IMG/VR virus record: IMGVR_UViG_3300021400_000025
Span: 214,479 to 278,478 of that record
Reading direction: 5' to 3' (one strand)
Source of the DNA: a virus
Taxonomy: Duplodnaviria; Heunggongvirae; Uroviricota; Caudoviricetes
DNA: 64,000 bases
This document shows positions 2,155-54,286 of this stretch, in pieces. The stretch's first letter is position 1, and the number at the start of each line of letters is the position of its first letter. Both the position numbers and the translations under genes were made by a program. The notes under the pieces are model-generated. The model made no database searches and was not told where the DNA came from. It was given only the letters and a program-made list of their open reading frames with translations.

Positions 2155-3197
2155 TCCACTATGATTGGATATGCGCTGAATACTGTCGCACCACTAATGC
2201 CGCTAAGACCACCCATTATTTTCAATTCGTCGTCTGTTCTGAGGTTGAATGCCAAGTTATTGTAAACTCCCTCACCATTAACATCATCACACAGCACTTT
2301 CTTCCCATTTATCTAAACAGTTTCATTTCCGAGATTTTGATAATTGACGTTAAAAAACTAATTACTACTATTTGCAATTATTAATCTTGTTGGAGAACTG
2401 GCTTTATACTAAAATGTATAATTTTGTCCATCTATTCTATGGTCTATTGCTCTTCCTGCATGTGTGAAACCACCGGTTGAAGTGGTATCGTTGTCTAGTC
2501 CAAAATCCCATTTGTCTGTTTTTGTGTCTATGAAGAACCTGGCCCCACTGATTATTGGGAGGATTCGTATAACAGATTGTGATGATGTTGATTCTGGGTT
2601 AGTCATTCCAATTTCAATTTTCTATCCTGCAGCGAGGAACAATATATAGCCGCCTGTTCCAGTTGCACTTCTAAATGGCCAGAGGTTGATGTCTTTGTCG
2701 TCTATTTTAAGATAAAACTATCTATTAGAGTGCCAGCTAGTTTGCATGTTAGTTGTCCAATAGCCATAGCCATTATTACCAGTATATCTTATCCAGACAA
2801 GACAGTCTTTGTTTACGGTCTTGGTAAAACTCTTGACTGCGCCATTATATGTTGTTTGTGGCTAATTATATTCATCATATATAACGACTTTTCCAACAAA
2901 CAAGTCCCAAAGGTAATTGGTGTCTGACTATTCCCAAGCCCTAACTTCTTGCTCTGTTGTCAAGACTTCTCCTTCTTCATCCGTGTCATATATCAACGGA
3001 CCGCCAATGTAGGATTTTGTGGGTGTACTTGTTCCAGATGACTTTGAATTGACATAATCTGCAAGTGCGCCCAACGTCATCTTCTTTGATGTATAGCTTC
3101 CATTGCTGTTCCTGGCTGATGTCATCAACAAGTCGCTGTCAGTAAGTTCTGACGCAGATGTTTCGTCAAGTTGATCTATTGTCATTATGTCGCTCAT
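2151..3197 (-). CDS. Putative tail fibre-associated protein (348 aa), several in-frame TAGs
   Basis: Fragments 2928-3197 and 2409-2606 join in frame across TAGs to TGA at 2151; paralogous to 4138-5133 (KTVxKxCLV, SGxRFFIDT). Confidence 0.65.
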
Positions 3198-5156: not shown

Positions 5157-5798
5157 TTAGTCTTCGTTGTAGTTCAGAATAATATTGTCTCCATATCCAC
5201 TTACGCCAATGTCATATTCATGTCCATTTTCAGTAACCACATATCTTGTCTCGTCAGTGTAGTCAAGTGGTTCCCCATCGTTTTCCCCACCACTCAATAC
5301 GATGTCATACACCCTGTCTTCTGTGATGACATACCTTTCTTCCTCTGATTCTGGTGGCTGATATTCGCTCAATGCCCTTATCTCAAATGGCTTATCTCCG
5401 ACCCACAATTTCGCTATTACAGGTCCGTCTGGATTTTCATTGTCCACCCTTATTGGACAAGCTGACAACTGCCTGTTTTGTCCAAGACCAGTGATGCCAA
5501 CGACGCCTGAATATCCATTTGAAATGTTGTTCTTGACGCTTATTTTGGATTCATCTATGTCGATCAAGTCTCCTGGCTGGGAGGGTATGGATTTCCCAGC
5601 CACCCAGTCTATCAACCTCAGGATGTCAGCCAAGTCTTCTGTGATGTTGGTGTTGGGTACAAACCAATTCTTCCAATCATCTGGGAGATTCGGCAAGTTC
5701 AAATCATCAATGTTGTGCCAAGTCAATCCCCCTTCAAAGGGATCGCCAGTAGCCCCCAAGACTGTTGCTTGACAATGCCTATGGTAATCTGCGCTCAT
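5157..5798 (-). CDS. Hypothetical structural protein
   Basis: Intact acidic ORF with GTAAATA late-type motif upstream (5839-5845). Confidence 0.6.
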   Translation of the reverse strand: MSADYHRHCQATVLGATGDPFEGGLTWHNIDDLNLPNLPDDWKNWFVPNTNITEDLADILRLIDWVAGKSIPSQPGDLIDIDESKISVKNNISNGYSGVVGITGLGQNRQLSACPIRVDNENPDGPVIAKLWVGDKPFEIRALSEYQPPESEEERYVITEDRVYDIVLSGGENDGEPLDYTDETRYVVTENGHEYDIGVSGYGDNIILNYNED

Positions 5799-8646: not shown

Positions 8647-8677
8647 TATTTACTATTTTTATGTATAATTGTAAATA
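8647..8677. promoter_or_regulatory. Divergent late-type promoters (GTAAATA on both strands) with an overlapping TATAAT
   Basis: tatttac at 8647-8653 and gtaaata at 8671-8677 between divergent genes; resembles the T4 late promoter TATAAATA. Confidence 0.55.
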
Positions 8678-8743
8678 ATAAAGGTTGATTGAGACTGCCA
8701 TCCCAACCAACCTGAATCATTCAAGATATACGAGGTATCTCAA

Positions 8744-10051
8744 ATGACTAAAGAAATTATACAATATAGTAAAGAAGAACTCAGGCAATTATCCAATTTG
8801 GAATTGCTTGACCGAATCAATCAAGTTGATGTTGATGTTGTTCATCTCGCCCGCTATTTGAAGAGTCATTGTGGCGAATTATTTGAAGAATTGGTTTTTC
8901 GTACCAGGTTTCTTGACAACAATTATAAACATATTCCAATAATGGCAAGGTTATATTGTCTGAGAAACAACATTGTTGAACAACCCAAATGTCGTCTTCA
9001 AGGATGTGATAATAATGTTGAATGGGATTGTGGTGCACAATCTTTCAGAAAATACTGCTGTCATCAACATTTTCTTGATGACCCAACAGTGCAGGATAGA
9101 AGAGAGCAAACAATGCTTGAAAGATATGGTGTCAGAACTCCAATGGAATCAGAGGAATTCAAACAACATGCCAAAGAGGTTTGCATTCGTGAATTTGGTG
9201 TTGAAAATAATGGACAACGAGAAGATGTAAAGGAGAAAATCAAACAAACGAACATGAAGAGACACGGAGCAAAATCATTTGTGGAGAGCGATGAATTCAA
9301 AAAGAAGTCTCAACAAACTTGTCGGCGCAAATATCAGGTTGATCACATATTGCAAAGTACTGAATTTAGAAATAGAATACAGCAAATCTGCAAAGAAAGA
9401 TATGGTGAAAGAGTTCCATTTAGAGTAAAGGAAATCCAGGAAAAAGCAAAAACGACATATAGAAAACTATATGTTGACGACGAAAACGGAAAACAATCAG
9501 TTAATCAGAAGAGAAGAACCACCATACAAGCAAAGTATGGAGTGAATCATCAGATGGAATTGGATTCGGTGAAAGAACGAATAAGGGAGACAAACAATGA
9601 AAGATATGGGGTTGATTATTATTCACAAACAAATGAATTTCACAAGAAATGTCATAAGCGATACACCAATCCAAAGTACCCAGACATGTCATGGGCAGAT
9701 TCTTGGGAATTCAAGGTATATGACTTCTTGACAGAACATAACATTCCATTCGAGTATCAGATAGAACCAATTCCATATGAATATGATAATGGAATTCATT
9801 ATTATCATCCAGACTTCAGGGTGAATGGCAGAATCTACGAGGTCAAAGGCGACAACTTCTTTCGCATCAACGGGGAAACTGGCAAGGAGGAGATGTATAA
9901 AACTTGGAGAGATCCAAACATTTCAGACGAAGAATATGAATGGCAATGTGGCAAGGAAGAAGCCAAGCACCAGTGCATGATTGCCAATAATGTCAAAATA
10001 TTGAGGAAGAAAGAGATAGACAATCTCACTGTTGAATTGTTTCTATCCTAA
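8744..10051 (+). CDS. Putative homing endonuclease: (K/R)YGV helical repeats plus C-terminal PD-(D/E)XK domain
   Basis: Repeated TxxERYGV units; C-terminal DSWE...YHPDF...IYEVKG. Confidence 0.75.
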   Translation: MTKEIIQYSKEELRQLSNLELLDRINQVDVDVVHLARYLKSHCGELFEELVFRTRFLDNNYKHIPIMARLYCLRNNIVEQPKCRLQGCDNNVEWDCGAQSFRKYCCHQHFLDDPTVQDRREQTMLERYGVRTPMESEEFKQHAKEVCIREFGVENNGQREDVKEKIKQTNMKRHGAKSFVESDEFKKKSQQTCRRKYQVDHILQSTEFRNRIQQICKERYGERVPFRVKEIQEKAKTTYRKLYVDDENGKQSVNQKRRTTIQAKYGVNHQMELDSVKERIRETNNERYGVDYYSQTNEFHKKCHKRYTNPKYPDMSWADSWEFKVYDFLTEHNIPFEYQIEPIPYEYDNGIHYYHPDFRVNGRIYEVKGDNFFRINGETGKEEMYKTWRDPNISDEEYEWQCGKEEAKHQCMIANNVKILRKKEIDNLTVELFLS

Positions 10052-15994: not shown

Positions 15995-16948
15995 TTATAC
16001 ATCAGAATTGGTTTCTTGTAAAGGATATTTCTTGTTCCACTCTTCTATTCGTTTCAGTAGTTCTTCTAATGTTATTGAACACGAGTCTCGTTTTGAAGCA
16101 TTATCGCATTGACGAACTAATCTACAGTTTGCAGGATGTGATATTATTTTGGGGTCTATGTTATTCAAAAAACCTTCCTTTACTGAATACATGTGGTCAC
16201 GGGAAACACCACCCATATTGTTTCCACGGTTCTTTGCTGAATACCAACCGTGTTCTTCAATTAATTTGAAGTCAAACTCATCTGGAAATTGGTTAAGTGA
16301 AAATGTAAACCTACATAATTCTCTATACCGAATGAGACGCAACTTATATTTTTCTTCGTCTGAAAGTCCATCCATATTTTTAGGAATATAGTTCTTAATT
16401 TTTAATCGTCCAGACTTAAATCCTTCTTTAAGGGTTTTTTGAACCTGTTCAGAATGGGCTTTAACTCTAATGTCAGTGGTCTTTGTTAATCCTTTGTTCC
16501 ACGCAACACATTTTTGTCCATTATAATGTTCTTCTCTATAATGTGAATTTCTTTCAGCCCTTGTCCTAAATATTTTACCACAAGTTGAGCATTTCCAATC
16601 TCCCTTTGCTCTACGTTTGTTATGGATATTGCTTTGGTTAAAGAATGCCGAGGTAAATGTTCCGTTTTTCAATTTGGTTTCATATGAATGTTTTCCTATT
16701 ACATGCATCCTACATTTTTTAGAACAGAACCTACCTGTGCCATAAGAACCATCATGCTCGTTGTTGCAATCTGGATTTTCACACTTGAACAATCCATTTG
16801 GAAGTCTGCGTTTATTTCGTTCTTCCTCAAGAAGTTTTAGATGAACTTTGCATTTTGATTGATGTCCAGTCATCTGGTTCAATCGTTCAAATTCTTTACC
16901 ACATTCACAGACAAATAGTCTGTGTTTTTCTTTACATTTATCACACAT
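15995..16948 (-). CDS. Zn-finger-containing putative HNH-type homing endonuclease
   Basis: C2H2-like fingers, EHDGSYGTGRFCSKKC, AWNKG, C-terminal SRDH...HPANC...N. Confidence 0.7.
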   Translation of the reverse strand: MCDKCKEKHRLFVCECGKEFERLNQMTGHQSKCKVHLKLLEEERNKRRLPNGLFKCENPDCNNEHDGSYGTGRFCSKKCRMHVIGKHSYETKLKNGTFTSAFFNQSNIHNKRRAKGDWKCSTCGKIFRTRAERNSHYREEHYNGQKCVAWNKGLTKTTDIRVKAHSEQVQKTLKEGFKSGRLKIKNYIPKNMDGLSDEEKYKLRLIRYRELCRFTFSLNQFPDEFDFKLIEEHGWYSAKNRGNNMGGVSRDHMYSVKEGFLNNIDPKIISHPANCRLVRQCDNASKRDSCSITLEELLKRIEEWNKKYPLQETNSDV

Positions 16949-17026
16949 ATTATTTTTACCTTTTTGTTTCTGAAGTCATGTCCGTGACTCCATAAAAGTA
17001 TTTACTTTAATTATACATAAAAGAAA

Positions 17027-17052
17027 AGACCATAGGCGGACACCTATGGTCT
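17027..17052 (-). terminator. Intrinsic terminator of the tRNA island (loop UGUCCG)
   Basis: AGACCATAGG-TGTCCG-CCTATGGTCT followed by TTTCTTTT. Confidence 0.8.
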
Positions 17053-19967: not shown

Positions 19968-20921
19968 TTATACACCATCTTCACCAAGATGTAAAGCGGA
20001 ATCTTCCTCTCGCTTTGGATAGGGAAGAACCTTGTTCAATTCAAGGAACTTCTTCCTCAGCGCGTTCGTCTCCCTTCTGTCCCTCCCGAGCACGAATGCG
20101 TACTTGTGCTTGCTCGGGAACTCAATCTTCTTCGCCTCTTTGTACATCTTCTTGGAATAATCCCTCAGCTTCTGCTCCACATCGTCCGGAATGTTCTCCC
20201 ACAGCATCTTCTGGTCATCGTTCCAGTTCCTCTGCCAGACTATCCCAAGATCCTTCGCGTATCTCTTGTACATTGATCTTGCCCTGAAAGCCCTGTCAGA
20301 AATCATCACCTTGGGGTTGTATGGGTTCACGCATCTGATTGAAGTTCCATGCCCCTGACCAAGATAGTAGAAGTTAAGCCCCTGATAGATGCTCCCAATC
20401 TCCTTCGCCTGTGGATCAGAATAGCATGTGAACAGTCTGTACTGCGTGTTCATCACCATCCACTTGATGCACCACATCACGAACTTGGAGCCAAGGTTGA
20501 ATGGACACCATGAAGCAGATGCACCCCTCATCAGAAGCCGCTCAATGTCCTTCGTGTTCTCCCCAAGCAGCTTTGAGAATGCATTTGGCATCCCCATTAT
20601 CACAACCCCACCAAGAATGCCCTTGTATCGGGCAGTGAACCAGTGTGTTGGATAGTTCCCAACTGTCCCAAGCCACTCGTACCTCTGTATGAACTTCGTA
20701 GCCTCGGCTTTTTCTGCCTTTGACGTTATTGGACTGAATTCAAAATCGTCAAGGGAAATGCTTTTCAAATCGTCTTCGCTGCTCCATCCATGAAGTTCCA
20801 TGTCCTCCTTCAAGGTGTCAAGCCGTTTCTGGTACTGGTAGCACCACTTCTTATCGTATGTGCGTATCTTCTCAAGCAGTCCTATGTCGCCCATTGTTGG
20901 GATTCCTTTCCTGTTGTACAT
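19968..20921 (-). CDS. Mom-like (GNAT-fold) DNA adenine modification protein
   Basis: FIQRYEWLG...YSDPQAKEIGSIYQGLNFYYLG resembles the Mom-family YxDP...GxIYQAxNFxYxG motif. Confidence 0.75.
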   Translation of the reverse strand: MYNRKGIPTMGDIGLLEKIRTYDKKWCYQYQKRLDTLKEDMELHGWSSEDDLKSISLDDFEFSPITSKAEKAEATKFIQRYEWLGTVGNYPTHWFTARYKGILGGVVIMGMPNAFSKLLGENTKDIERLLMRGASASWCPFNLGSKFVMWCIKWMVMNTQYRLFTCYSDPQAKEIGSIYQGLNFYYLGQGHGTSIRCVNPYNPKVMISDRAFRARSMYKRYAKDLGIVWQRNWNDDQKMLWENIPDDVEQKLRDYSKKMYKEAKKIEFPSKHKYAFVLGRDRRETNALRKKFLELNKVLPYPKREEDSALHLGEDGV

Positions 20922-23781: not shown

Positions 23782-24117
23782 TGGTGGAGCGGAGGGGAAT
23801 CGAACCCCTGTCCGAAGCATTCCGTTTGGACGCTTTCTACAGCAATTTCCCATGTCATTTAACCTCTCACCATAATGGGAATCAGATGACAGGCGAGAAT
23901 CCTCATATAATGCTCCACAAGGCGAGGAAACCAGACCTCAATGGGCATGTCAGATAATCCATTCCCTACTCAAGCCCCATCTGACATCAGGCTTTTTCAG
24001 TAGGCTTAAGCAGCCATCGAGTAATCGTTGCCGTTTACTTGTTTTGGAAGGTTTACGTCATCCAGACGTGTTGCTGCGTCCTTGGGAGGTTGTTCCGTCG
24101 AAAACCTGTACCGCCCC
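23782..24117 (-). ncRNA. ssrA: tmRNA
   Basis: 5' GGGGCGG..GGTTTTCGAC, 3' GACAGGGGTTCGATTCCCCTCCGCTCCACCA (G3:U70), internal tag ORF ...GNDYSMAA-TAA. Confidence 0.93.
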
Positions 24118-26719: not shown

Positions 26720-27000
26720 TGGCTGTAGTGGGCGGACTCGGACCGCCAGTTGCTTTCGCCACGGATTACCTGCTACATTGGTTTCCCATTGTAGTCTGGA
26801 CTATCTCATCATCCCATTTCTGGGAGCATCCTCTATAGTCTCTACGCATTTACGCATTTCTGCGATTTAGTTCTGTGATTAGCATGTTGCATACGCAATT
26901 TAGCCTATCCAGAGTTAGGGATGTGTTTCAATCAAGATTGCTCTTGAAAGCTGCCATTTAGGAGGACAGTCCGCTGCCTTACCATTCGGCTCACACTACA
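26720..27000 (-). tRNA. tRNA-Asn(GUU) interrupted by a group I intron
   Basis: Exons join to GCGGA-CT-GTT-AA-TCCGT; TGTAGTG/CACTACA acceptor; G73-CCA. Confidence 0.82.
26769..26965 (-). ncRNA. Group I self-splicing intron (197 nt, no ORF)
   Basis: P7 elements AGAGACTA and ATAGTCC, P1 CUGU^C/GGCAG with a U.G at the splice site, terminal G. Confidence 0.85.
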
Positions 27001-29039: not shown

Positions 29040-32000
29040 TCAAGTCAAGGGATCTCTCAACGCCCAGAACACGAATCCATGCGAGAAAGTGCCATCGTGC
29101 GTTATCTTCTGCGCGAAGTCGGTGAAATTGATGTACGCATATGTTGGTGATTCGCTGTCCCTCTCCCAATTCGTGTTGATGAATGGGGTTATGTTGGCTA
29201 TGTCTCGTTCATAGTTGCCCGTCTCCTGGGAATGTCCGGCGCCTGGGACATTGTTTTTCATCAGATACCAACATTTGAGAGTGTGCCCGGGGTATTGGTA
29301 TATTGGAGCCTGCTGGGAACCATATTTCAGATTCTTGAATGAGGAGTCGTACAGCATGTTCCGCCATGGCAATATCCTGACCTTCCAGAAGATTTTCCCT
29401 GTGGGCACATGCCTATATGATGCAGAATCGTTCCATGTGAGATATTTGGAGCATGCGCATTGGTTGCCTGTCTCGCCCAGATAGTACAATCCAGCATCGC
29501 CACCTGTCGTGTACCAACTTGTCCATATGGCTTTTTTCACCCCTGTGGGGACGAGTTCAGACAGTTCTCTTGTGACTATGATGGGGGCGGGAGCTGGTGT
29601 TGAGCCAGATGAAGAGCCAGATGAAGAGCCAGGTTCCAATCCCTCTTCCATTGACTGTATGTAGTCCACACTGGTTATGATGTCGTCGGGATTAAATGGG
29701 GAGAAGTTCAATGTGAACCCATTTTCATCCATCGTCTGGTTGTCGCTGGCAGTCTACGATGTGTTCCATGGGTAGTTCTCCAGTTTGGATATGTCGTCGC
29801 GCCCTCTATCGGGGAAAAACATGTCCTTGATGGTTGGGCATCCATTCAAGATGTTCTTCGAGATGCTTTGAACTGTCTTGGGGATTGTCAGTGTCTTCAC
29901 CTCGCAACCATTGAACGCATCTTCGCCGATTGCCAACACCCCATTTGGCACAACCACATTTGATTGGTTCCCAACATATTGATGGAGGGTGTTGCCCACC
30001 ACGATGAAGCCATCTCTTGCGAGTCCAATGCATCCATAGAACGCCTTGGAGCCGATGTGCGTGGTGGATTCAGGGACGACGATTTCGTTGTGCAAGCATC
30101 GACAGTCCATGAACGCATTTTCCCCAATCCATGTCAGAGAATCTGGCAATGCGATGTCCTTCAACCTGACGCATCCAATGAACGCATTGTCCCCTATGCT
30201 CGTCACACTGGATGGAATGCCCACATGCTTGAGCGAAGTCCAAGATTCAAATGCGTTCGCGCCGATTGCCGTCACCTTGTTGCCAATCTGGACTGCTTGT
30301 GGAGAGGTCTTCAATCCACACAGCCCTGCTTCCTGCATGGTCTGCATGGACACTTCGCCACTCCAATCATATGTCCTCAATGTTCCATCTGCGAAATAGA
30401 TTGTGGTGTTGCCATCTGGATCCTTGGGCGGATGCCCTCCGTTGCTCCTCATGGTGGATGGACTCACTTTGACTGTTGCCACGGCCAAATCGTCAAGTGG
30501 GGATTTCTGCCTTGAACTGACCAGAGGGATTGGCGCAAGTTTGACGAAGGTTCCTGTCCCTATGACAACATCATCATCCACATCTCCCTCGCCTTGATGT
30601 GGGGTTTCATCTGAATGTGGAGCTGGGATGTCTTTGTCGGTCAATTGCTCCGCCGTTCCAGGTCTGATTATGATGTCTATCTTCTGCACCCCCCATGGAT
30701 AGTTGGACATGGCACTTATCTCGCTCTTCGTCCTCTCTTGGAAGAGGATGAGACGATTCACTCCCATGAACGCCCAAGCCCCAATCTCCTCCACCTGCTT
30801 GGGGATTCTCAATATTGGGTCGACGGATTCCGCAGAGCAGTCCATGAACGCAGAATCGCCAATCCTCCTCACCGACGATGGGATGTCGATTGGACCGAGA
30901 AGCGAAGAGCATCCTTGGAATGTCTGCTCCTGTATTTCCACCAGACCCGATGGCAATCTCACTGAATCCAGTTTTGTGCATCCACTGAACGCCCCCCTTC
31001 CAATGCTTGCCACCGAATCTGGGATGGAAATCTCCACCAGTCCTGAATCCTTGAACGCATAGTCGCCTATGCGGACTATCGAATCTGGCACGGTGATGCG
31101 CTGCAGATTGCTGAATCCACTGAATGCGCAGTCCCCAATCTCCGTCACCAATCCACCCAGTTGGATTGAAATGGGCTGGCGTTCCTTCAAATCAGATGTC
31201 GTGAAATGGTCTATCGCCCCTGAGAACACGAACTCCACCTGGCTTCCATCTTCAAGGGTGGCATATGTGGCGTCCTCGGAAACTGGCGCATCTTCTTCCT
31301 CCTCCTGCGTGTCCTTCCACTCTCCATCCACTGCGCACATCGTCCCATCTTTGCAGACCAATATGCAATCTTCTCCACCCAGACCCAGCTTGGTGGGGTC
31401 GACATCCTCCATCCTCATGGAACTCAGGCAGACATATTCAATCTTGCTGCATCCTCTGAACGCCCCATCTCCAACCATGATGGCATTGGGGAACTCGGCC
31501 CTTCTGAGATTGACGCATCCCGAGAACGATTTTGGCAGAATCTACTGCACCCTCGGCAGATATATCGTCTCCAGATTGGAATCCCCAGAGAACACATTCC
31601 CCAGAAACTGCGTGGCATACACCTCATAGATGTCAGATGGGACAGATTCGCCGGGCTTGAATCCCACTATGCAGGTCTTCTCAGAGGTCTCGCTGGGTGG
31701 TTCATCGTCGTCCGACTGCTCATAGTCCCACTCGAAGAATGGTTGCCCCTCATTGGTCAAAGTGAAGATGCCATCCATTCCAATCACATCGCAACTGTCC
31801 ACCAGTCCATACGCCCACGATCCAAAACTGGATTGATATCTGGATAAGAGGCCAGTTCCCTTCAAATTGAGGCATTTGAGCGAAGTCATGTCCTTGAACA
31901 GATTGTCGGGGAGATTGGACGCAGACTGCAAGTTCATGAACCTCATCTGCAAGCATCCATCCATTGAATTCCCCTGGATGGTGGTGGCGAATGGAACATC

Positions 32001-32567
32001 CAGAATCTCCAGACTGGAACAGTTGTTGAATGTCCCATTGCGCACAGATTCCAATGACGGAAAGATCACCTCTTCAAGGGATGAACATCCAGAGAACACA
32101 TCTTGTCCAATCGTCTTCAGAAAGGGAGCGCGAATCTTCTTCAACGAAGAGCATCCCCACAGAGCCTTGTCCCCCAGCTCCACCACCCTCGGCAAATCCA
32201 GTTCTTCAAGCATGGAGCATCCACTGAAGCCCTCATCGCCGATGTCCTTCACGAATGGAATGTTCGCCTGCTTCGCGGATGAGCATCCCATGAAGCCTTG
32301 CTCCGCCACATGAGCCAATTTGGGGAAGTCGATGGACTGCGCCATGGAACAGTCCTTGAACGACCCATTTCCCATGGACTGCACGTTTGGAAAGTCAAGT
32401 TCCTCCACATGATTGCACGATATGAAGGCATAGTCGCCTATGGAACGTGCGTCGGGAAACACCAGACTTGTGGCCGCGAATATGCCAGGGAACGCGCTGT
32501 TCCTTATGTTGATGGCGTCCTATCCATCTATTTCCTTGATGAATTGAAGCTTGATGTATGCGGCCAT
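29040..32567 (-). CDS. Large multi-domain BspA-type LRR protein (1175 aa), three in-frame TAGs
   Basis: ORFs 31542-32462, 29754-31478 and 29040-29732 are in one frame separated by TAG; ATG at 32567; several LRR_5 blocks ending NYPW. Confidence 0.82.
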
Positions 32568-32578
32568 GAGTTCCCCTT

Positions 32579-32953
32579 TCACTTCCCATGTTCAAGAAGA
32601 TCAACTTGGTTCGTCGTCTCCCTGAACACCTTGAGAATATTTACTATATCCTCAACGCGCACAACAACGCTGTTCGTGGAGGAATGCGAATGAAGACCAC
32701 CAAGATTGAACATGACGGTTCTATTGGTGGTGATTTCCGCGGACATTGATTCTATGTCTGTGCTGAATCCAAACTTGAAGTATCTGACCTCGTATCCCTG
32801 GTCGATGATGGCGTAGTCAATTGGATTGGTTGAACAACTGGATTCAGAATATATTGGCATGACAAGGTTTGGCCGCTTGTCAACAGTCACCTTCGCCATG
32901 CAGCCTGTCATAATCACTGCAAGCAGTCCAATAAATGTCAATGTCCATTTCAT
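32579..32953 (-). CDS. Lipoprotein (possible spanin component)
   Basis: Signal peptide with lipobox MTGC; near a holin-like gene. Confidence 0.5.
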   Translation of the reverse strand: MKWTLTFIGLLAVIMTGCMAKVTVDKRPNLVMPIYSESSCSTNPIDYAIIDQGYEVRYFKFGFSTDIESMSAEITTNRTVMFNLGGLHSHSSTNSVVVRVEDIVNILKVFRETTNQVDLLEHGK

Positions 32954-53036: not shown

Positions 53037-54014
53037 TCACAAGTCATCCTTGCCAATGCAAAGATTGTCGTCAAATGCGCATTTGCCCTCGATGAAGTCA
53101 TGATACTGCTTGTGGATGAAGTATATCTTCTTCTCAGGATGTTGTTCGACAACCAATCTCATCTTCTCTCTATCTGAATCTGGATATCCACCCTTGACTT
53201 CAACATAGATGTCTCTGTCTGGAATATATAGGTCAGGAATATAGTTGTGCCAATAGTCCTTGAAATACTTGATTGGAGCAGCTTTCACCCACAATATGCC
53301 AAGTGCGTTCAACCTCAATGCCACATTCTCCTCCCAATGTCCCCGAACAGAGAATTCCTTGCCCTCTATGTTCTTTACTTTGTACCACTTCACCTTCACA
53401 TGCTCCTTATTGAGGTACTGGTTCATGACTTGTTCAGCACGTTTGGCAGAGATTTTTTGGCGGGTTTCAAGAGTGTGCTTGTGAGACACAACTGATATAT
53501 GTATCTCTCCCCTTGCATATTTTTCTGAGAATTTTCTTCCTTGTCTCTTGTGCATTTCATCGTGTTCCGCCTTATTTGGATGATTAGGGCAATTAACCAT
53601 ATGTCCACCAGCTCCTCTACCACTATCAAATTCTTTCCCACAATAACGACAAACATATTTCCCATCATCTGTAATAATACATCCACTATGTACAACTCCA
53701 TGTACATTAGCCATATGTTTTTTCAGTTGATTGCGTGTATCTAATATCATTCCACACAATTTACACTTCCAAGTTCCATACGGAGATTTTGCATGGACTT
53801 TACCTTCTGCCCTCAATTTGTCAAGATGAGCCTTGACTTTTGGATTATTTGCGCCTCTATTTTTACTCGCAATATATTCAATCTTACATTCCTTTGAGCA
53901 AAATCTTCCTGAGCCATAGGTGTGGTCATGTTCTTTTCCACAGTATTCACAAGGCTTGTCCTTGTTCGCAAGGCGTTTCTATGCCATTGCTTTACGATAA
54001 CGTTCTTTGTTCAT
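53037..54014 (-). CDS. Zn-finger-containing putative PD-(D/E)XK homing endonuclease; TAG at codon 12
   Basis: ATG at 54014, TAG at 53979; EHDHTYGSGRFCSKEC, C2H2 fingers, YIPDLY...VEVKG. Confidence 0.75.
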
Positions 54015-54097
54015 ATTATTTTTACCTTTTTGTTAACGGAGTCACCCCACGTGACTTCGCATTATCTATTTACAATTATACGATTTTTTAGCAAAAG

Positions 54098-54130
54098 AAA
54101 GCCATATAGGCGTGGGGCCTATACGGCTTT
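54098..54130 (-). terminator. Intrinsic terminator after the suppressor tRNA (loop CCCCACG)
   Basis: AAAGCCGTATAGG-CCCCACG-CCTATATGGCTTT-CTTTT. Confidence 0.8.
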
Positions 54131-54135
54131 ACGGG

Positions 54136-54208
54136 CTGCCCGTGAAGGAGTCGAACCTTCCCCCCAGGTTTTAGAGACCTGTGCGCGAGACCGGCACGCA
54201 GACGGGCT
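54136..54208 (-). tRNA. Amber suppressor tRNA (anticodon CUA), probably Gln-charged
   Basis: CAGGT-CT-CTA-AA-ACCTG anticodon arm; GAAGG-TTCGACT-CCTTC T-arm; 1:72 mismatch and G73. Confidence 0.88.
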
Positions 54209-54286
54209 GTTGAAACTTGTGTCTCGTTTCTCTCGTCACATTCAATTATACAAAAAATGGTTGGAACTTTCGCATGAACCAACCAA

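Follow-up and report, generated by a model that had tools for sequence, protein, structure and literature searches.

A kissing-loop RNA leader on putative homing endonuclease genes of an amber-recoded phage and its relatives

A nuclease gene that is SegB-like and likely selfish carries, directly downstream of an amber suppressor tRNA gene in a phage genome, a kissing-loop RNA leader not catalogued in Rfam; the principle of the T4-type leader is already known. The leader consists of two hairpins with complementary loops. Comparison of related phages showed more than 20 versions of the loop pair and indicates that the pairing has been kept by selection at the RNA level while the sequence of the pair was free. 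From these comparisons, we are close to certain that the two-hairpin kissing structure is real. The window, meaning the whole stretch of 64,000 nucleotides that was analysed, belongs to a record that is a complete 418,068-base phage genome with terminal repeats.

Structure and covariation of the leader

The elements of the leader at the nuclease locus and at a second locus of the window (locus 1) are listed in Table 1. Hairpin 1 begins a few bases past the end of the CUA tRNA. A preliminary description of this DNA had claimed a 7-nt complementarity between the hairpins, and loop 1 (CCCCACG) is indeed the exact reverse complement of loop 2 (CGTGGGG). The 7-nt loops presuppose opened closing C-G pairs; minimum-energy folds give 5-nt loops. 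The sequence described between the hairpins, TATAATTGTAAATA, was found at 54067-54080. The same description counted 23 bases before the ATG as identical to locus 1; the 23 bases are identical, but the ATG was counted in, leaving 20 before it. The TATAAT context 5' of the CUA tRNA is also kept in three related loci (L021, L022 and L097).

Table 1. Features at the nuclease locus and at locus 1 (positions in the window unless given in aa)
Feature	Position	Strand	Basis
TATAAT promoter-like hexamer 5' of CUA tRNA, putative promoter	54245-54250	-	sequence
CUA tRNA, amber suppressor, probably Gln; CCA incompletely encoded	54133-54209	-	ARAGORN
Hairpin 1, terminator-like, 14-bp stem; loop CCCCACG at 54111-54117	54098-54130	-	fold, covariation
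U-rich tract 3' of hairpin 1	54091-54097	-	terminator scoring
TATAAT between hairpins, without sigma-70 -35 partner	54075-54080	-	sequence
GTAAATA, putative late promoter, analogue of T4 TATAAATA	54067-54073	-	genome-wide statistics
Hairpin 2, stem AGTCA/TGACT; loop CGTGGGG at 54045-54051	54040-54056	-	fold, covariation
A-rich leader, identical to locus 1; SD-like AAAGGT at 54024-54029	54015-54034	-	
325-aa nuclease gene (TAG=Q); TAG at 53979-53981	53037-54014	-	
325-aa protein: treble-clef-like Cys4 finger	aa 22-43		
325-aa protein: C2H2 finger	aa 82-105		
325-aa protein: further Cys/His finger and weak NUMOD3-like stretch			
325-aa protein: T7 endonuclease I-like PD-(D/E)xK domain; E228, D261, E272, K274	aa 223-302		
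Locus 1 leader, behind tRNA-Thr(UGU)	16946-17052	-	sequence, fold
Locus 1 hairpin 1, loop TGTCCG	17027-17052	-	
Locus 1 GTAAATA	16999-17005	-	
Locus 1 hairpin 2, loop CGGACA	16974-16989	-	
Locus 1 gene, 317 aa, same zinc-finger module, without TAG, HNH-like C-terminus	15995-16948	-	

Loci were fetched around the finger motif of the nuclease: 76 viral loci from the best 80 of 184, 79 metagenome loci from the best 80 of 146, and 2 from this genome. With a strict detector, which demands that loop 1 be the reverse complement of loop 2, 36 of the 132 leaders of finger genes in these sampled loci were positive, with 24 different loops. One of the 36 (L138) was dropped as a probable chance match, leaving 35 kiss-positive leaders. 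As controls, the detector picked 4 of 1038 ORF starts in this genome (the three true leader copies and one weak chance match) and 3 of 382 other ORFs in the fetched loci (two GIY-YIG genes and one recount, all real copies).

Taking into account that the strict detector selects on complementarity, we ran two tests without such selection. Anchoring on the flanks only gave 29 distinct sites (L161 was listed twice, and distinct sites are counted), of which 28 had the hairpin-1 closing motif; all 28 carried exactly complementary loops. When loop-loop pairs were left out of a covariance model, its search yielded 37 distinct matches, and the loops were exactly complementary in 36 of them, including 22 of the 23 outside the training set. 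The exception, L101, has one U·G in the kiss and is a variant intermediate between L024 and L140, which is what compensation at the RNA level would predict. An unbiased covariance search of the whole genome returned three significant matches, all 5' of nuclease genes.

Covariation was scored on the 14 leaders whose loops are in register, as alignments of 31 and 20 rows were misregistered. All 224 cells pair in the 14-leader alignment, and five of the six kissing pairs change on both sides. None of 500 shuffles reached the observed covariation score, in a test that is inflated by relatedness. When the partners were slid by 1-3 columns, only 33-54% remained paired. Near-invariant across leaders are the GG/CC closing pairs, a GTYR/YRAC core and an A-rich tail. 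Could the complementarity be chance, or the functionless scar of a DNA inversion or duplication? Single pairings span only 6-7 nt, as such an origin would allow, but there are more than 20 different fully complementary loop pairs together with a G·U intermediate. The background is one chance match per 1038 ORF starts, and cross-pairing between unrelated loop variants never reaches 6 (0/552). We regard this explanation as extremely improbable, refuted by the covariation unless the loci are assembly artefacts.

Among earlier attempts at recognising the leader, the first sequence pattern gave 1 true match in 12, and a later pattern gave four matches in viral contigs, all of them chance and without hairpins. 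L018, considered as a member, was also a chance match.

When the 64-kb window, 10 related loci and the leader alone were compared with Rfam 15, only tRNA and tmRNA reached the gathering threshold. The best match to the leader alone was DUF2815 (17.8 bits against the 41.2 required), and no Rfam ribozyme matched it at E up to 10. The leader is an RNA motif absent from the Rfam catalogue. A literature search, which mostly left subscription journals outside its coverage, found no account of a kissing or loop-loop leader on homing endonuclease genes.

Genes and tRNAs associated with the leader

The 325-aa protein has 107 homologues at E ≤1e-3, and about 200 aa of zinc fingers and linker are fused in it to a T7 endonuclease I-like domain. 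The PD-(D/E)XK C-terminus assigned to it in the preliminary description was borne out by a match to Pfam Phage_endo_I (PF05367; E 3e-8, 33.8 bits against a cut-off of 29.1), and a profile match to solved T7 endonuclease I structures gave E 7e-11. In 59 homologues, C22, C25, C39 and C43 of the Cys4 finger are invariant, and E228, D261, E272 and K274 are each at least 90% conserved. The 20 Pfam families listed for the protein include no GIY-YIG. In sequence, a PD-(D/E)xK core is what it shares with T7 endonuclease I and, over the Pfam cut-off, with PF05367. Unlike T7 endonuclease I, the gene is placed like that of a homing nuclease and not in a replication module.

Judged by motif classes, the C-termini that follow this finger in different proteins are Endo I-like, DSSWE-type, Vsr-like, QHAE-type or HNH-like. 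At least five apparent kinds of C-terminal nuclease on one finger is the build typical of free-standing homing endonucleases, and the 325-aa protein is likely one of these. No relative with an empty site was found via the upstream protein or by blastn in annotated phages, and all four orthologous loci (the window, L021, L022 and L097) are occupied by the nuclease gene.

The locus 1 protein has 657 homologues. The shared N-terminus claimed for the two nucleases was recovered at 35% identity over 99 aa (E 3e-13). As for the C-terminus of the locus 1 protein, described as HNH-like, no Pfam HNH family matched, but the Atlas neighbours include HNH clusters (0.89-0.91); the label is only a lead. A third leader copy lies at about 393,100-393,235 of the genome on the minus strand, with loops ATACCAA/TTGGTAT and an inserted hairpin. 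It precedes an unrelated homing endonuclease gene of PHROG 655 (L179:434-1436). No two of the three copies in this genome share a loop pair, and this also holds for the three on one related contig.

Downstream of the 37 covariance matches were 34 zinc-finger genes, 2 GIY-YIG genes and 1 gene for the PHROG 655 homing endonuclease. All 37 therefore stand before nuclease genes, of three unrelated kinds, in a sample biased to finger genes because the loci had been fetched around them. A tRNA was present in the fetched stretch for 124 of 131 non-duplicate finger genes (31/35 kiss-positive, 93/96 kiss-negative), and in 27 of the 35 kiss-positive leaders an ARAGORN tRNA ends within 200 nt of the ATG. 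The view of a modular, mobile-looking nuclease cassette in tRNA arrays was upheld: at least five nuclease types occur behind one finger and leader, and a near-identical leader, starting from the tRNA 3' end, follows tRNA-Arg in L026 and tRNA-Tyr in L038. A strict association with tRNAs was not, as it is an Hsp20 gene, and no tRNA, that precedes the third genome copy. The leader also occurs on GIY-YIG and PHROG 655 genes, and without a tRNA; it is therefore not specific to tRNAs, nor is it a dedicated partner of the zinc finger. A role of the loop as a guide for the upstream tRNA was considered and discarded, since one loop is found behind different tRNAs and one tRNA type with different loops. 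In L023 (2260-2370), an odd tRNA-like gene lies directly 5' of the leader, with a UAU anticodon arm near its 5' end and a long extra arm.

Autoregulation by zinc-finger binding to AGTCA-N6/7-TGACT had also been proposed. The stem core varies (GTCA 12, GTTA 9, GTTG 7 and GTCG 1 in 29 rows), and the same leader is found on nucleases without such a zinc finger, both of which argue against it. In a broader form, the kissing complex would be bound by a protein that acts as repressor or activator of the gene, be it the nuclease or another factor of phage or host; reading AGTCA/TGACT as a DNA operator is a special case of this. The near-invariant GG/CC pairs, GTYR/YRAC core and A-rich tail suggest a fixed shape, and passages of PMC2988022 describe autorepression by I-TevI. 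On the contrary, the sequence of the palindrome is not conserved, and self-binding would need three unrelated solutions because zinc-finger, GIY-YIG and HNH-type proteins share the leader. We consider a protein-binding role quite improbable.

A different arrangement was seen at four similar-looking genes, at 8670-10051 of the window (plus strand) and at 5569, 313450 and 418045 of the genome (all minus strand). The gene at 8670-10051 matches homing endonuclease PHROG 3339. In this group the promoter reads TATAATT-GTAAATAG, and another kind of two-hairpin leader lies entirely downstream of it. The second hairpin contains the SD, with which, at 313450, the loop of the first hairpin (TTCCA) could pair.

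A promoter motif between the hairpins and a possible read-through lock

The late promoter consensus of T4 is TATAAATA. The phage genome encodes T4-like Gp23 and portal proteins as well as two sigma-70-like proteins, one of which scores over its family cut-off. Searches for a gp33-like coactivator and for gp19 gave no match, the control of the same search being equally silent in each case. Genome-wide, 60 of 117 GTAAATA sites fall in intergenic DNA, which makes up 7% of the genome, against 1/34 for the control motif GCAAATA and 0/8 for CTAAATA. GTAAATA is found 36 nt 5' of the T4-like portal gene and 25 nt 5' of a sheath-like gene, the latter recognised by a Pfam match under the cut-off. RTAAATA precedes 86 listed starts at 0-95 nt, and the distance is often below 10 nt, which suggests that transcription starts about 5 nt downstream of the motif. 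GTAAATA would be the counterpart, in this phage, of the T4 late promoter.

In 31 of the 35 kiss-positive leaders, RTAAATA separates the two hairpins, and hairpin 2 begins 2-6 nt past the motif in 27 of 29. In 19 of the 35, a TATAAT without a -35 element is also present between the hairpins. Of four RNA runs, one shared 7% of the sequence words, and it yielded one chimeric contig of 301 nt, outside the leader.

Complementary hairpins that straddle a likely late promoter are likely to silence the nuclease in read-through RNA. Nuclease genes of T-even phages are known to carry a stem that masks the ribosome-binding site (RBS) only in early read-through RNA, with the late promoter inside the stem. 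Such leaders are described for I-TevI, I-TevII, I-TevIII, segB and Aeh1 mobE in passages of PMC2988022, where the hairpin of seg43(25) stands unexplained. The leader reported here resembles them in that the gene is a likely selfish nuclease gene and the structure needs sequence upstream of a putative late promoter, so that it would form in read-through RNA only, and it resembles seg43(25) in having a hairpin just upstream of a free RBS. It differs in being made of two separate hairpins that are connected through their loops by a helix of 6-7 bp, whose sequence is free. The SD is left out of the pairing, and in many cases hairpin 1 is a terminator as well.

Our somewhat favoured reading is a T4-style lock, in which read-through RNA would kiss and be translated poorly, hairpin 1 being absent from the transcript that starts at the gene's own promoter. 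With strong tRNA promoters, a nuclease gene placed behind one would need a terminator and a second lock. Hairpin 1 would end much of the tRNA precursor, and the read-through RNA that escapes would form the kiss. Judging from the genome-wide statistics, GTAAATA would direct transcription from near the base of hairpin 2, giving an RNA with hairpin 2 at its 5' end and without hairpin 1. In the weakest step of the scheme, the kissing fold would hinder ribosome loading 17-22 nt 5' of the AUG. The A-rich/SD strand may perhaps dock on the near-invariant GG/CC pairs; steric hindrance or docking is a guess. By analogy with SegB, a nuclease made late would cut the tRNA region of a rival phage and spread with the neighbouring tRNA allele. 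An early amber codon, found in the suppressor-linked clade, may add a second gate.

In 26 of 29 leaders, the distance from the end of hairpin 2 to the AUG is 17-22 nt. The SD, 3' of hairpin 2, has no conserved Watson-Crick partner, with weak U-tract pairing predicted in single sequences only. The predicted mean unpaired value of the ribosome site was 0.69 in the read-through RNA versus 0.84 in the short transcript and was lower by more than 0.1 in 21 of 29 leaders, in a calculation that ignores the kiss and has no shuffle control; the drop is partly expected from length alone. In 16 of the 90 kiss-negative relatives, the position of the kissing leader is taken by an inverted repeat that folds over the ribosome site and has an AT-rich promoter-like loop. 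These show the T4 layout, and as the kissing leader has the same position and logic, we propose the same purpose for it. Further points weigh against the lock. The TATAAT between the hairpins could yield RNA free of hairpin 1 before late times, and good termination at hairpin 1, if it occurs, would leave little partner in cis.

Another possibility is regulation in trans, where the hairpin-1 trailer of the tRNA precursor acts as an antisense that kisses the 5' hairpin of a separate nuclease mRNA, so that nuclease output is tied to tRNA transcription. Hairpin 1 is terminator-like and the promoter motif separates the hairpins, both in keeping with this, as are the three loop pairs of three co-resident copies here and on the related contig. 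With more than 20 variants, however, differing loops in co-resident copies are expected by chance, and the co-resident L022 and L023 loops differ by one base. The complementarity is moreover confined to the loops, with no room for a longer duplex. We judge antisense action in trans to be unlikely.

Equally unlikely, in our estimation, is that the kiss controls the fate of the RNA, through a pause or stop of the polymerase or by steering or preventing nucleolytic processing of the tRNA trailer and nuclease mRNA. The unpaired SD would fit such a role, and so would a cassette that begins at the tRNA 3' end, with the tRNA in most cases close to the ATG. Against it, the tract after hairpin 2 is A-rich and not U-rich, the third genome copy has no tRNA, and the motif is seen solely before nucleases.

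Loop-loop helices of 6-7 nt are familiar as regulatory contacts in ColE1 RNA I/II and in the cobalamin and guanidine-IV riboswitches. Unlike these, the leader is without a long antisense partner, and its loops contain no invariant ligand pocket. Theta ribozymes are also small RNAs located directly 3' of phage tRNAs, suppressors included, in recoded gut phages, as part of PMC10879173 describes. The present structure has two hairpins and one kiss in place of an HDV-like nested double pseudoknot, and the leader, unlike theta ribozymes, has a putative promoter within it and goes with the gene that follows.

Amber recoding and the suppressor tRNA locus

In a crude gene call over the whole genome, 160 of 292 ORFs of at least 150 aa contain in-frame TAG, with 432 TAGs in total; TAG is read through in this phage genome. 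ARAGORN found 33 tRNA genes and 1 tmRNA gene in the whole genome, and the sole CUA-anticodon tRNA is the one upstream of the leader. The residue aligned opposite TAG was most commonly Q (20/83), followed by K (17/83), and Q was also the most enriched, 2.9-fold. TAG is read as Gln in the literature on code 15, and the alignments point weakly to Gln as its probable meaning here. A search of the phage genome for a release factor gave no match.

Several other features of the window, all on the minus strand, were observed. The phage tmRNA gene (23782-24117) encodes the tag GNDYSMAA, and a Mom-family DNA modification gene (19968-20921; Pfam PF25680, E 6e-9) lies within the tRNA array. By eye, a Tyr-type tRNA at 26760-27000 is interrupted by group I intron-like sequence; the Tyr-type tRNA interruption in L124 (156-395) scores 30 bits with Rfam Intron_gpI, under the threshold. 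A 1180-aa repeat protein with three TAG codons (29040-32582) has PHROG matches of unknown function, and its repeats presumably resemble those of BspA-type leucine-rich proteins.

The nuclease gene has a TAG at codon 12, as previously noted. The amber dependence drawn from this is ordinary in a genome where more than half of the ORFs counted have TAG, although five of six loci of the nuclease's clade have a TAG within the first 22 codons. The proposed link to recoding tRNAs applies to this clade and not to the leader family: all six clade loci stand behind a CUA tRNA, against 6 of 35 in the leader family. These six are the nearest kin of the nuclease and group together with an SH-aLRT of 91; the tree, a quick one built from 100 columns, shows clustering only. 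One TAG each is present at codon 12 in the window, 20 in L021, 12 in L022 and 22 in L097; L025 has TAG at codons 7 and 13, and in L098 the first is at codon 47. The share of early TAGs in the clade exceeds the background, in which 9 of 89 GTAAATA-led genes have TAG in the first 25 codons. The early TAGs amount to about two independent positions and are thus a hint only.

The window, L021, L022 and L097 represent one orthologous site, with common flanking genes or promoter. The CUA tRNA differs at each of these four loci, which together have three distinct loop pairs, and the nuclease domains are 94-100% identical compared with 50-79% for the finger regions. L097 carries a second CUA tRNA after the nuclease gene (2915-3020), so that a CUA tRNA stands on both sides, and L021 (180-300) has a truncated tRNA 5' half and a repeated promoter before the intact tRNA. 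These extras appear to be scars of rearrangement at the suppressor locus. In L098 (1583-1730), a CUA-type tRNA seems split in the anticodon by a tRNA-like insert of about 76 nt ending in CCA.

SegB homes the tRNA region of T4 and recognises the T-arm motif GGTTCRANTCC, as reported in parts of PMC2330249, and amplifies tRNA genes according to parts of PMC13096335. Like SegB of T4 and T6 (PMC2330249, PMC13096335), the nuclease reported here is free-standing and encoded among tRNA genes of many isotypes, and the duplicated CUA tRNA of L097 recalls the SegB-driven tRNA amplification described in PMC13096335. The two differ in build: SegB is a GIY-YIG enzyme, whereas the 325-aa nuclease combines zinc fingers at its N-terminus with a T7 endonuclease I-like domain at its C-terminus. 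By analogy, the 325-aa nuclease would work like T4 SegB in putative homing. Of 90 kiss-negative leaders, 59 contained the tRNA T-arm consensus GTTCRA; the corresponding counts were 23 of 233 for control ORFs and 0 of 35 for the kiss-positive leaders. One or two copies, in either orientation, are present within the 70 nt that precede the ATG, and they often form an inverted repeat masking the SD (for example in L049, L055, L071, L081, L157, L158, L165 and L170). Although some of these sites may be tRNAs that ARAGORN missed, their frequency is a hint that tRNA genes are recognised by the finger family, too.

The elements at the suppressor locus could together make up a triple-gated selfish drive for the genetic code. 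A nuclease behind the suppressor tRNA, held back by the terminator, the kissing lock and the early amber codon, would cut rival suppressor-tRNA alleles and in this way spread, duplicate and diversify the recoding tRNA. The four CUA alleles, the contrast in identity between nuclease domains and finger regions, and the flanking tRNAs of L097 are consistent with such a drive, which we offer as a doubtful but conceivable combination. If the suppressor-linked clade does home, it would provide a route for amber-suppressor tRNAs, and with them stop-codon recoding, to spread and become more diverse among gut jumbo phages. A promoter between kissing partners would make the leader a sensor of where transcription starts. 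The T4 rule by which selfish nucleases are tamed would then cover a tertiary contact in addition to a simple stem. The more than 20 natural loop pairs are material for orthogonal switches.
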